A stretch of 63,868 nucleotides of DNA, filler included, from Nitrospinae bacterium RIFCSPLOWO2_12_FULL_45_22 (lineage in GTDB: Bacteria; 2-12-FULL-45-22), in NCBI GenBank assembly GCA_001803565.1. It is 4 parts of 4 records of this genome, joined end to end, with 100 filler letters (N's around TTAATTAATTAA, not from the genome) between each part and the next. Parts side by side here need not be neighbours in the genome. Positions count along the whole stretch, not along the records: positions 26,390 to 37,206 come from MHDQ01000131.1; 3 more parts are not named here. One strand, 5' to 3'. Below are positions 32,926 to 37,135 of the stretch, one piece after another. Within the stretch, counting starts at the first letter, position 1. Each line of letters starts with the position of its first letter. A program made the translations under genes and the position numbers. Below the pieces are notes generated by a model. It saw only the letters and a list, made by a program, of their open reading frames with translations. It was not told the origin of the DNA and searched no databases.

Positions 32926-34323
32926 ATGCTGATAGACACCCATGCCCATCTGGATTTTCCTGATTATGAACCTGACCGGGAACAAGTGCTCCAGCGGGCC
33001 TCAGACGCAGGGATACAATATATTATTACCGTCGGGACTGACCTCGCTTCTAGCAAAAAGTCTTGTGAGCTCAGCCAGTCTTATCCCCAAATATATGCCA
33101 GCATCGGCATCCATCCCCACGAAGTCAAAGAGCTGGGGCCTGACCCCTCAGATATTTACGATGTCCTGAAAGGGCTAGTGCGGCAGGGCAAAGGGAAAGT
33201 AATAGCCTGGGGAGAGGCTGGGTTAGACTATTACCGGGATTATTCTCCCAGGGAGGTTCAGGAGAGGGAATTTCGCCACCAGGTCAGGATAGCTCAGGAG
33301 CTGGACCTGCCTTTGATTATCCATGCCCGGCAGGCCCATGACGAAGTATTGAAAATCCTTAACGAAGAAGCGGGCCCCAGGTTGCGGGGTGTCTTCCACT
33401 GCTTCTCTGGCGATGAGAGGATTGCTAAGGAAGTGCTGGGCTTAGGTTTTTATATCTCCCTGGCAGGCCCCCTTACCTACCCCAACTCTCATAAATTACA
33501 GCGGCTGGCAAAAATACTCCCTACTGACCGCCTATTGCTGGAGACCGATGCCCCCTTCTTAACACCCCAACCACGGCGCGGGAAACGAAACGAGCCCGCC
33601 TTTGTCACCTATGCGGCGGATAAACTCGCTGAGATAAAGGGGCTTTCTAGTAGAGATATTGCCCGGATAACTTCCCTCAATGCCTCTCTTCTGTTCGGCA
33701 TAGGAGGAAAGGATAAGACCGCTAAGATCGTTTACCAAATAAGGAAATCCCTCTACCTCAACCTGACTAATCGCTGCACCAACAACTGCTGCTTCTGTGT
33801 CAGGAACGATACCACCTATGTTAAAGGGCATAACCTGAAACTATCCCAGGAGCCTTCCATAGAGGAGCTCTGGCAAGCCACAACTGCAGAAGACCCAGGC
33901 CGCTACCAGGAGGTGGTATTCTGTGGCTTAGGGGAACCTACGTTGAGGCTAGAGGTTATTAAAGAGATTGCCCGTCGCTTAAAAACCAGAGGGATAAGGG
34001 TACGGCTCAACACCAATGGCCAGGGCAATTTGATCCATGCCAGAAATATCCTGCCGGAGCTAGAGGGCTTGATTGATGCTATCTCTGTGAGCCTCAATGC
34101 AGAGGATAAAGAAAAATATTATCACTTATGCCACCCCATATTTGGCCTTGATACTTATGACCAGGTCAAGGAATTTATTAGGGGGGCGAAGCGATATATC
34201 CCGCAGGTAGGTGTCACGGTGCTGGATATGCCCTGGGAGATAGATCTAAGCAAGTGTCAGGAGATAGCAGAAAAGGAGTTGGGGGTTTCCTTCCGCATCA
34301 GAGAATATAACATACTCGGCTGA
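32926..34323 (+). CDS. TatD DNase fused to a TatD-associated radical SAM domain
   Basis: DTHAH, GIHPH and ETDAP motifs, then YLNLTNRCTNNCCFC and FCGLGEP. Confidence 0.9.
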   Translation: MLIDTHAHLDFPDYEPDREQVLQRASDAGIQYIITVGTDLASSKKSCELSQSYPQIYASIGIHPHEVKELGPDPSDIYDVLKGLVRQGKGKVIAWGEAGLDYYRDYSPREVQEREFRHQVRIAQELDLPLIIHARQAHDEVLKILNEEAGPRLRGVFHCFSGDERIAKEVLGLGFYISLAGPLTYPNSHKLQRLAKILPTDRLLLETDAPFLTPQPRRGKRNEPAFVTYAADKLAEIKGLSSRDIARITSLNASLLFGIGGKDKTAKIVYQIRKSLYLNLTNRCTNNCCFCVRNDTTYVKGHNLKLSQEPSIEELWQATTAEDPGRYQEVVFCGLGEPTLRLEVIKEIARRLKTRGIRVRLNTNGQGNLIHARNILPELEGLIDAISVSLNAEDKEKYYHLCHPIFGLDTYDQVKEFIRGAKRYIPQVGVTVLDMPWEIDLSKCQEIAEKELGVSFRIREYNILG

Positions 34324-35111: not shown

Positions 35112-35369
35112 TTACATTTTAGCTACTTCTTTTTTCATTTCATCTAAGGATATTCTTTTCCCTAGTTTAAATTCCTTTCTTGATTTTGCAATAATCTCGA
35201 GGAATTCTTGATTTGTGCTTAAAGATATTGATTCCATATCTACGTCTTTTAGCGAAACAAGCGCCGCCACAGGCTTATCCTTCGATTTTAGAACCAGTAT
35301 TTCTTTATCAATTTCTTTGGCATACTCAGATAAAGGTTTGGAGGCCGTTTCTAAATCAATTGTTTTCAT
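35112..35369 (-). CDS. Phd/YefM-like antitoxin
   Basis: KPLSEY..E...KPVAALV pattern. Coupled by an ATGA overlap to the restored toxin frame. Confidence 0.8.
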   Translation of the reverse strand: MKTIDLETASKPLSEYAKEIDKEILVLKSKDKPVAALVSLKDVDMESISLSTNQEFLEIIAKSRKEFKLGKRISLDEMKKEVAKM

Positions 35370-35673
35370 AATTTCACCGTCTTTCCAGCCATAAATAAGA
35401 CACTACCTTTCTTATAACCTACTGCAAGGATTTTTACAATTTTACAATATTGGGATCATCTGATGTGATAGCGTAAAATGCACGAAGGTTGCCTATTCTT
35501 AATTCCCAAGGGGCAATTGGGTTAGGACGAAGAGGTTTTCTATTTCGTGTCTCTTTCAGAGGCTCGTGGAAAAGTTGCTTTTCAATTCCATCCATTATTA
35601 ATGAACGCTGACTTGCGTTTAGGTGTTTGAAATGTTCTCTGACGCAATCGGCAAATTCGATTTTGTAGGCCAT
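35366..35673 (-). pseudogene. RelE/ParE-family toxin frameshifted by an 8-bp duplication
   Basis: KPLRPN...WELRIGNLRAFY motif. TTTACAAT is duplicated at 35433-35448; removing one copy restores KILAVGYKKGSVLFMAGKTVKL*. Confidence 0.85.
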
Positions 35674-35698
35674 TTTTTATTCTAATTTTAAAGCCACA

Positions 35699-36591
35699 AT
35701 GGGTAAGGGAGAGGCCGTCGCCACTCCCTTACCGTTGTCGCAATAGGGTCAATTCCCTATATTTGCCCCGATAGAAAACTTTCCTAACGAGGTTTACCAG
35801 CGTGAGTCTTTCTCTCACTGGGCGGCCCCCGCAAGATTGCCCCAAATAGGGGAGTAATCATATCGACCTTTGCCTGTTTGCAACAGGTGTTCCCTTGTTG
35901 ATACGATTACCGAAGGTAGTCGATCAATATCTACATCGAGAGTGTTCTTAGCGTTACATTGAGCCTTCCCCTACTTTTCATACATGAAAGTAAGGGAGAG
36001 CCTTATGTGGCCGATACTCGTAAGCTAACTTCTCCCATGCGGTTACCTCTCCTACCTCTCTCTTTTAGGTGTACCCTTTTGAGCTTCCAAAAGAAAGCCC
36101 TCCTCCGGGTACGCTGTAGACCCTAAAGAGCAAGAGCCAGGGATAGCCCCGTGCTCACCATCGCATAACGCCAACATTTCGGCATAGCCTTATAGTTGCC
36201 GCTTATCTCCATCTTCACAAATGGAGAACGACGTAGATCATTCATCGGTCAGTTATTGCACCATTTTCCTCAGGTGAAACCACCAAGCACCCCCACGAGT
36301 CATCCATGGATAATCGTCCACTACATGGACGGAGGTCAATAGACTACATAACCCCAGCGCTTCAGTCGTCGTTAGGCTCCTGGCGCACAGAGAAGGCCGA
36401 ATCGTGACTCCTCCCGAAGTATCATTGCCTGGCCCCTTCGCCACAGCCCATTTCTGGACTGCCCTGGCTGCATACCCCTCAAAAGAGAGTTCGAGCAATG
36501 ACTTCTGTACGGAGACGAATCCGCACCTGTCTGCCAAGGCACAGGCAGGCTCCGACCCTAAAAGGGCCTCACCGTTTAAGACTGAGCGCAA
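35699..36591 (-). ncRNA. ORF-less group II intron-like RNA
   Basis: 5' TTGCG, GAGAAGTTAGC junction-like motif and DIII-like hairpin ending GGGGAAGG. DV-like CGCCCAG-TGAG...CTCA-CG-CTGG and a DVI-like hairpin ending CCCTTACCCAT. No reverse transcriptase ORF. Confidence 0.65.
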
Positions 36592-36606
36592 TTAACCTGC
36601 GTCTCA

Positions 36607-36664
36607 CGGTAACGATAGAGCTAAGCTGCCGCTGAAAGCGGTTGGCTGGAGCGAATGGTTAGGT
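36607..36664 (-). mobile_element. Integron attC site
   Basis: Minus strand reads ACCTAAC-cattcgctccagccaaccgc...gcggcagcttagctctatc-GTTACCG, directly after the cassette stop codon. Confidence 0.8.
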
Positions 36665-36666
36665 GC

Positions 36667-37050
36667 TCAAGACACAAAGCCAAAATAGCCGAACAAGAGT
36701 CCGACGAAAATCCAAACATATGGAAGTATCCTCAAAACCCTGTCGTTGAAAAATGGTTTGGAGAGACTCTGAAAATATTTTGGGAAGGCTATTATGATTA
36801 CGCCTTTCATTAGGGTGAGCCAGCCGATAATCGTTATCAGCACAGTCCAGTTTCTTTCCCAGCTATTGTGATAGTTCACTATCATAAATCCAATAATGAC
36901 TGCCGTGAGACCCATAAAGTATGTCAGTGCAGTGTTCTTGAACATGTCGTCCTTTAGTCTGCGATAATGATCTGCACTGAAAATCCCACCTACAGCAACC
37001 GATAGATATATTACCGAAATGATTTTGGCGATGAGCCTAGATAGTTCCAT
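36667..37050 (-). CDS. Integron gene cassette encoding a four-TM membrane protein
   Basis: GGAGG RBS before ATG 37050. Bounded by two attC sites, with cassette ends GTTAGGCGC and GCACCTAAC nearly complementary. Confidence 0.8.
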   Translation of the reverse strand: MELSRLIAKIISVIYLSVAVGGIFSADHYRRLKDDMFKNTALTYFMGLTAVIIGFMIVNYHNSWERNWTVLITIIGWLTLMKGVIIIAFPKYFQSLSKPFFNDRVLRILPYVWIFVGLLFGYFGFVS

Positions 37051-37074
37051 ATCAGCGGCCTCCATATCTGTTGC

Positions 37075-37135
37075 GCCTAACGATAAGCTCACCCGCGCGC
37101 GGTTTTTGCGCGTCGGCTGGAGCGCTTTGTTAGAC
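37075..37135 (-). mobile_element. Integron attC site
   Basis: Minus strand reads GTCTAAC-aaagcgctccagccgacgcgc-aaaaacc-gcgcgcgggtgagcttatc-GTTAGGC, a canonical RYYYAAC...GTTRRRY site. Confidence 0.88.

Follow-up and report, generated by a model that had tools for sequence, protein, structure and literature searches.

An ORF-less, IIC-like group II intron with a hairpin-interrupted domain V, in sense orientation at an integron attC site of a Nitrospinae genome

The Intron Locus and Its Integron Setting

The window analyzed here is a 63,868-nt chain of contigs from the metagenome-assembled genome Nitrospinae bacterium RIFCSPLOWO2_12_FULL_45_22 (GCA_001803565.1). On one of these, contig MHDQ01000131.1 (C131), a 912-nt element lies ∼600 nt from the contig end, preceded by an integron cassette with its attC site and followed by a toxin-antitoxin-like gene pair. 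The features of the locus, in 5′ to 3′ order on the minus strand, are as follows (domains V and VI are listed further below):

37075–37135, minus: attC site before the 141-aa ORF cassette (R″ GUCUAAC ... R′ GUUAGGC)
36667–37092, minus: 141-aa cassette ORF, hydrophobic, with no Pfam or NCBIfam match
36610–36664, minus: attC site of the 141-aa cassette, from R″ ACCUAAC to the GUUA of R′ (...AUCGUUA)
36610–36615, minus: IBS1, UCGUUA, the last 6 nt of that attC site, complementary to EBS1
35698–36609, minus: ORF-less group II intron, 912 nt, delimited by homolog junctions, EBS1-IBS1 pairing and an invariant 3′ U
36603–36609, minus: intron 5′ end, CCGUGAG (GCGYGAG in the family; G1 replaced by C)
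36526–36549, minus: REP-like 24-nt palindrome in domain I, adding 16 nt (36539–36524) relative to the paralogs on contigs C216, C99 and C260
36369–36374, minus: EBS1, UAACGA, at a homologous domain I position that co-varies with the 5′ exon
35853–35936, minus: domain IV remnant without an ORF, its approximate limits taken from sequence comparison (the reverse transcriptase ORF of the relative L033 starts here)
35112–35673, minus: toxin-antitoxin-like pair, consisting of a 79-aa ORF and an 85-aa Phd/YefM-like ORF

The attC site at 36664–36610 directly abuts the intron, which starts 3 nt after the G/TT crossover (GTTA/intron; the slash marks the junction here and below) and has the same sense as the cassette genes, on the strand where the attC runs from R″ (RYYYAAC) to R′ (GTT..). 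Both attC sites in the window belong to one attC family together with sites on contigs C23 and C216; no attC was found at the intron’s own 3′ end, and a search of the genome with the intron flanks found no empty target sites. Integron integrases are encoded in the genome (TIGR02249, 467 and 439 bits against a cut-off of 265), none of them on the intron’s contig. These two full integrase genes are part of 34 TIGR02249 matches with unusually many fragments, distributed over contigs C243, C304, C115, C136, C7, C317, C55, C202 and others.

Downstream, 24 nt separate the end of the intron from the ATG of the gene pair, whose 79-aa ORF we take to be RelE/ParE-like; the 85-aa ORF scores 20.6 bits with PhdYeFM, below the cut-off. 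The toxin-like ORF (35434–35673, minus) is shortened by an 8-nt tandem duplication relative to L031, a near-identical metagenome copy in which this frame is ∼18 codons longer and its stop overlaps the antitoxin start. Also in the window, on the plus strand, a 465-aa ORF (32926–34323) reads in translation as a TatD-type hydrolase-like protein with a radical-SAM-like C-terminal half.

No credible gene lies within 36609–35698, where ORFs do not exceed 112 aa, and the intron region folds far better than its shuffles, none of 20 reaching its MFE of −368 kcal/mol (z −6.9). The region is more than a chance sequence because partial paralogs occur on four other contigs of the genome and homologs elsewhere. 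In 15 distinct copies the 5′ junction reads N/GCGYGAG, with CCGUGAG only in the window lineage and C216, and the family 3′ end reads ...CUUACCCNCU, with the final U (35698 in the window) invariant in 44 of 44 aligned copies. The boundaries are further supported by L028, in which a canonical R′ box, GTTA/GGC, is restored, and by a head-to-tail pair in L024. Neither end follows the group II consensus (5′ GUGYG, 3′ AY); the family has 5′ GCGYG and 3′ ...CCCNCU instead. The first-pass annotation, which overlooked the integron setting, had the element run from a TTGCG at 36591 to a CCCAU at 35699. Both strings are present on the minus strand (36591–36587, and ending at 35699); however, comparison with homologs places the conserved 5′ end 18 nt upstream, at 36609, and UUGCG falls in a variable stretch and is no family feature, whereas the CCCAU ending was misplaced by a single base from the true end at 35698. 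A GUGAG start was also considered and was dropped, since the EBS1 pairing sets the 5′ end two bases upstream.

Distribution of Homologs and Intron-Encoded Proteins

A 22-mer from domain I recruited at least 18 metagenome loci: four near-identical to the window copy, three representing the genome’s own paralogs, and the rest seven distinct relatives (L020/35, L021/22/25, L024, L026, L027, L028/36 and L033). A contig scan with a 20-mer from domain I gave 0 matches, and a DNA search of 60 relatives of the genome, which is taxonomically isolated, gave none. A 22-position DV/DVI pattern recovered at least 110 loci from species genomes, of which ∼17 are estimated to be chance matches; at least 77 of them have a DVI-like tail, in MAGs of many phyla labeled Planctomycetota, Acidobacteriota, Chloroflexota, Desulfobacterales, Verrucomicrobia, Chlamydiae, Nitrospiraceae and others. 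Six loci are full elements of ∼2.0–2.1 kb with the same 5′ module, and five loci have YADD-containing ORFs of 341–436 aa. Only DV/DVI (73–81%) is common to the window intron and the copies in Ca. Scalindua rubra (L184, L185). The L024 contig (16–372; 1155–2386) carries a canonical DV/DVI (RF00029, 36.7 bits) and a D1D4-4 match, followed by the two family introns head to tail.

The relatives place a reverse transcriptase (RT)/maturase in domain IV, which in the window copy is without an ORF. L033 shares the 5′ RNA with the window copy, and its ORF, beginning ∼720 nt after the shared 5′ motif and reaching 302 aa before it runs off the locus, scores 341 bits with TIGR04416 (cut-off 300) and 142 bits with RVT_1. 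The ORFs of L110 and L101, which have the same DV/DVI, score 399 and 404 bits with TIGR04416 (cut-off 300), and L110 is one contiguous element comprising the 5′ module, the ORF at 635–1942 and DV/DVI at 1958–2075. The proteins of the family are ∼400–440 aa long and have no endonuclease domain. The nearest solved chains to the L110 ORF are IIC RTs (7uim, 257 bits; GsI-IIC, 251 bits); the maturase RT chain 6me0 and LtrA score lower, at 171 and 167 bits. In 301 genomes of one phylum, the closest relatives of the L110 intron-encoded protein (IEP) do not exceed 44% identity across the full ORF, except for one 130-residue fragment with a stop that is 69% identical. Judged by the nearest solved proteins and by its behavior, the lineage is IIC-like.

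Detection With Covariance Models

A scan of the whole window at the gathering score gave no Rfam match, and at E ≤ 10 the interval 35300–37000 gave three chance-level matches, none to a group II model. The Rfam group II models (D1–D4, RF00029) were likewise without a match at five other family loci, and Rfam also missed the ORF-bearing L110 intron (L154). Ordinary group II DV/DVI in the genome were found (C191, 43.4 bits; C30, 42.6; C47, 35.4), and so, at the gathering score, were all 19 of the scanned control loci carrying the nearest RT/maturases to that of L110 (D1–D4 and/or RF00029, the latter in 12). A covariance model built from the 44 aligned copies (R1) gave 104–133 bits on family members, whereas 29 loci that surround the nearest other RT/maturases, all of one phylum, scored no higher than 36 bits. 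The first-pass annotation had named the Rfam Intron_gpII and group-II-D1D4 models as the check on its intron call. That check gave no match, an outcome that had been named as refuting the call, yet the identity stands on the RT/maturases of the relatives and on EBS1 covariation, and the miss does not refute it because Rfam also misses members of the family that contain the ORF while finding ordinary introns in the same runs.

Target Recognition

At the EBS1 position of domain I, the sequence tracks the copy’s own 5′ exon over 5–6 nt in six further lineages, as EBS1/IBS1 pairs GUAACC/GGUUAC (L069), GAACGC/GCGUUC (L075), GCCCU/AGGGC (L076), GCCCC/GGGGU (L083), AAGUUC/GAAUUU (L101) and GAAUGU/ACAUUC (L110), alongside UAACGA/UCGUUA of the window type. 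The pairing thus comprises 5–6 bp in all lineages examined, with six of six positions paired in the window copy. Because this domain I hexamer is complementary to the 5′ exon and changes with it, the 5′ splice site is fixed right after GTTA. For EBS2, 6-nt complements to exon positions −7 to −14 were sought in the first 520 nt, and none stood at homologous columns, so that no consistent EBS2 was found. Copies outside integrons likewise sit just 3′ of hairpins; the upstream hairpin target, attC or other, is that of class IIC.

These observations fit a lineage that recognizes a DNA hairpin together with a 5–6-nt IBS1 read by EBS1, and a sub-lineage that inserts in the top strand of attC, after GTTA and ahead of the remainder of the R′ box. 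Top-strand insertion at this position leaves the intron in sense to the cassette genes and, as proposed here, co-transcribed with them. It would also leave G/TT intact, so that the intron would travel as the 5′ end of the next cassette.

Structure of Domains V and VI

The 3′ part of the window copy contains the following elements, also in 5′ to 3′ order:

35797–35826, minus: 5′ strand and hairpin of domain V, parsed by hand with pairs counted in 44 copies, comprising GCCGC (CGC triad at 35824–35822), a CCAGU/GCUGG lower helix, an AC bulge (35803–35802) and a GAG/CUC upper helix with an AGAAAGA loop (upper hairpin also from RNAalifold)
35762–35792, minus: 31-nt extra hairpin particular to the window copy, at a variable expansion site
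35743–35760, minus: hairpin B, a family-wide DV insert (AUAGGG AAUUGA CCCUAU), in 44 of 44 copies
35737–35741, minus: GCGAC, the proposed 3′ strand closing the CGC stem
35698–35733, minus: domain VI and 3′ end, in which 35704 is the branch-point A (7 nt from the 3′ end)

The initial reading of this region, a DV-like helix (CGCCCAG UGAG..CUCA CG CUGG) followed by about 55 nt with two hairpins and then by a closing UGCG, was confirmed on the sequence (helix at 35824–35797, 54 nt with two hairpins at 35796–35743, UGCG at 35742–35739), and it agrees with the architecture of the whole family. In the family, DV reads G(U/C)CGC, CCGGU, the hairpin GCGG-GAAAG-CCGC, AC, GCCGG, UAAAU, hairpin B (AUGGGG-AAUUGA-CCCCAU), U and GCGAC, after which come AAC and DVI. 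A typical group II DV is a hairpin of ∼34 nt that carries the catalytic triad, a 2-nt bulge and a GNRA-type loop. With hairpin B and its linkers taken away, what is left agrees with this DV in its elements and their spacing, with a 5-bp spacer ending in U.G, a two-base bulge and a short upper helix; the loop is GAAA-type and 5 nt long.

A MAFFT alignment of 44 distinct copies was used to test covariation at 30 proposed pairs in DV/DVI. Standard pairs filled 94.5% of the cells and nine pairs had double changes; the covariation score was reached by none of 500 shuffles, and slid partners were 47–56% paired. Hairpin B was paired in 98.8% of cells, two of its pairs having double changes (G-C/A-U and U-A/C-G swaps). 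DV helices 2–4 co-vary, and the triad stem is invariant: CGC is present in 44 of 44 copies although the G(U/C)CGC partner stood outside the search pattern, and GCGAC is equally invariant but was itself part of that pattern. RNAalifold recovered only hairpin B and DVI from the gappy 44-row alignment; with 20 insert-free rows its structure comprised hairpin B, the upper hairpin of DV and a DVI whose A is bulged, and in place of the triad stem it gave a small GGG/CCC hairpin with a GU/AC closure. We infer closure of the triad stem from the canonical DV, because the stem never varies, its 3′ strand was pre-set by the pattern and RNAalifold disagrees. If closed, it would make the family DV a three-way junction of CGC stem, DV hairpin and hairpin B, with hairpin B leaving the 3′ strand just above the triad.

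The interruption of DV had been considered a possible private inactivating event, to be judged from homologs. Hairpin B proved to be family-wide and covarying, and only the second, 31-nt hairpin belongs to this copy alone: it is missing from C261 and most other copies, and L020, L027 and L028 have other inserts there. The interruption is not a private inactivating event, because hairpin B is present in 44 of 44 copies, including six of six that were found by the D1 motif or BLAST, independently of the DV motif (L020, L024, L027, L028, the window copy and C261).

Group II introns have the unpaired branch A of DVI 7–8 nt from the 3′ end; in the family it is bulged 7 nt from the end, and the 3′ strand resembles the Rfam consensus cCUACCCcAu. 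In the window copy, GGUAAGGGAG (35733–35724) is fully paired with CUCCCUUACC (35711–35702), and the branch A pairs with U35731 within a perfect stem, just as first read. A U or its equivalent stands opposite the branch A in three of 44 copies (the window copy, L108 and L111). The RT/maturases of the relatives, the EBS1 covariation and the fit of DVI and the 3′ end to the consensus together bear out the original call of an ORF-less group II intron RNA, and the window element is almost certainly a member of a group II intron family.

State of the Window Copy and Its Paralogs

At columns conserved in at least 90% of copies, the window copy departs at nine of 177 in its first 520 nt (D1–D3) and at four of 66 in DV/DVI; five of the nine D1–D3 departures are an effect of the REP insert, and the ORF-bearing L110 and L101 show 8 and 10 departures. 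By this measure its core does not appear visibly eroded, being no more decayed than that of ORF-bearing relatives. The changes of note are G1 to C, where the other 12 of 12 sequences of the D1 alignment have G, GG to UA in the DVI 5′ strand (which pairs the branch A), the penultimate C to U, and the REP hairpin. Exact or near-exact copies of this perfect 24-nt palindrome (CCTGCCTGTGCC TT GGCAGACAGG type) occur on 11 other contigs (C71, C287, C124, C182, C107, C315, C150, C138, C48, C174 and C78), and among the intron copies it occurs only in the window. It is dispersed in the genome like a REP/MITE-type hairpin. The idea that it was part of the intron family was dropped, as an unrelated dispersed palindrome that is missing from the other copies.

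The paralogs of the intron in this genome are all partial. C261 retains the 3′ half at 82% identity, ends exactly at the position of 35698 and starts exactly at the G/TT of another attC; C216 has the first ∼250 nt joined straight to the last 31 nt; C99 and C260 retain 5′ parts. A toxin-antitoxin-type pair follows three copies, those of the window, C216 and C261. The full copy carries GTTATGCG internally (∼36171), matching the start of C261 (L002, ∼1583–1640). This match and the position of the C261 start look like integrase-type recombination at an internal pseudo-site, and the C261 copy suggests that an intron traveling with a cassette can be cut down by the integrase. Deletion derivatives in the family comprise mini-copies of ∼300–355 nt (C216 and L059), L020, which lacks ∼300 nt between direct repeats, L032, which lacks ∼40 nt, and L138, which lacks the 5′ half of hairpin B.

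No cognate RT/maturase of the family was found in the assembly, which is 85% complete. Its only RT/maturase-like sequences are a 1003-aa frame with a group-II-like RT and a C-terminal fragment beside an ordinary intron. The 1003-aa frame (L148, C291:13901–14833) scores 293 bits with TIGR04416, just under the cut-off, and is possibly a fusion protein. No spliced or intron-less joint was found in four public runs, which consist of assembled contigs only and are uninformative on splicing. An RNA-library contig (X20) is 93% like 35905–36175, and a run that is probably of DNA (X18) contains a relative at ∼94% identity; neither of the two is evidence that the window copy is transcribed or spliced.

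Interpretation and Alternative Explanations

The reading that we favor, with a probability of about 0.6, is that the window element is a non-autonomous, ORF-less copy of a IIC-like lineage at an attC site, most likely stranded there and splicing poorly or not at all. The grounds for regarding it as stranded are the C at position 1, the pairing of the branch A within an unbroken stem, the REP hairpin in domain I and the lack of a cognate maturase in the assembly. With the branch A paired in this way, any reaction would probably proceed by hydrolysis, the route already suggested in the first-pass annotation; the U opposite the branch A is also present in L108 and L111 and may therefore be tolerated. 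With a completeness of 85% and the poor assembly of repeats, the IEP may simply be missing from the MAG. On balance the window copy has probably lost useful splicing, and it may act mainly as a structured spacer fused 5′ of the downstream toxin-antitoxin cassette.

A still-working intron is the next explanation to weigh: co-transcribed and excised mainly by hydrolysis with a maturase supplied in trans from an unassembled copy, it would join the flanking cassette RNAs and restore the attC R′ box at the RNA level. IIC introns self-splice in vitro mostly by hydrolysis, and in a yeast intron mutation of G1 slows splicing but leaves it accurate. The conservation of the core at the level of ORF-bearing relatives, the match of EBS1 to its own 5′ exon at six of six positions, the persistence of near-identical copies in several metagenome contigs and runs, and the recurrence of the GGUAAGGGAG-type DVI in L108 all agree with this explanation. 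It is made unlikely by the C at position 1, by the REP hairpin in a domain I helix and by the lack of a family IEP in the assembly, and the deletion derivatives C216, C261 and C99 point to ongoing decay of the family in this genome.

Improbable is an RNA co-opted by the host or the integron, whether as a structured leader with promoter or stability elements or as a protein-free, HYER-like hydrolytic ribozyme. The toxin-antitoxin-type pair after three copies and the short distance from the intron end to the downstream ATG would suit such a role, as would the excess of ORF-less over ORF-bearing copies among the attC-type matches listed; known IIC-attC introns do carry outward promoters, according to the available part of their description (PMC3001079). 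However, the ORF-less copies are heterogeneous, with varied deletions and truncations and no common derived feature; no minus-strand promoter-like site was found near the intron 3′ end, the sole one inside the intron lying at 36339–36310; and toxin-antitoxin genes are frequent in cassette arrays anyway, as the accessible text of PMC7923331 indicates. A non-coding integron cassette, moved as structured RNA or DNA solely by the integrase, would account for the start of conserved sequence 3 nt after G/TT, for the C261 start exactly at G/TT and for the absence of an Rfam intron match, but it is already contradicted by EBS1-IBS1 covariation that includes copies at non-attC hairpins, by the RT/maturase ORFs inside relatives, by the lack of an attC at the element’s own 3′ end and by the L024 head-to-tail pair.

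Beyond the stranded copy preferred here for the window, the recruited loci allow a broader and more tentative proposal, namely a widespread undescribed group II intron lineage (at least 77 species-genome loci) with a three-way-junction DV and a 5′ GCGYG. Surveys detect group II introns by domain V, their most conserved part. Detectors based on DV would miss this lineage, so that many ORF-less copies, among them sense copies at attC, may have been overlooked. According to the part of one review available to us, ORF-less bacterial introns would be missable only if their DV is unlike known ones (PMC4424553); the present family falls under this condition: Rfam misses all members tested, and R1 separates them cleanly.

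Comparison With Known Systems

Class IIC introns use a CGC triad. The family resembles them in having CGC in place of AGC, in inserting just after a DNA hairpin, in its short EBS1-IBS1 pairing with no EBS2 found, and in an endonuclease-less RT/maturase of ∼400–440 aa whose nearest solved proteins are IIC RTs. It differs from them in the lack of Rfam D1–D4 and DV matches, in its 5′ GCGYG against the IIC GUGYG, and in a DV with a conserved hairpin in the 3′ strand and a 5-nt loop. The IIC-attC introns (S.ma.I2 lineage) are similarly specialized for integron attC sites, often in arrays; however, they are described, in the portion of the source consulted, as inserting in the bottom strand, antisense to cassette transcription, whereas the present lineage lies in the top strand, in sense, at GTTA/ in R′ (PMC3001079). 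UHB.I2, a IIB1/CL1 intron, also lies in sense directly after an attC, with non-consensus termini and in a toxin-antitoxin-rich array, but in the available part of its description its triad is AGC, its fold is that of a typical IIB intron, an IBS2 is present and no DV insert is reported (PMC7923331). Classes IIE and IIF share with the family a 5-nt DV loop in place of a tetraloop and endonuclease-less IEPs, and differ from it in that they are described as IIB-like; the excerpts available of their description mention neither a DV hairpin insert nor a GCGYG end (PMC3753933).

In the text searched, the literature on class E/F introns and on HYER contained no match to the features of the family, and full-text searches brought up no relevant account of a group II intron whose DV has an insertion or a three-way junction; an earlier description is possible. 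In the U2/U6 catalytic core of the spliceosome, the triad helix and the bulged stem-loop form separate arms of a multi-helix junction instead of a single hairpin. The proposed family DV would be alike in this arrangement, and unlike in that two RNAs, acting in trans within a protein machine, make up the U2/U6 core; the likeness would be one of topology only. If the proposal holds, this DV topology would be a natural intermediate, with the undivided DV of group II introns on one side and the multi-helix U2/U6 core on the other. Were a three-way DV able to support catalysis, its triad helix would not need to be coaxial with the bulged hairpin in one continuous stem, which would bear on the origin of the U2/U6 core.
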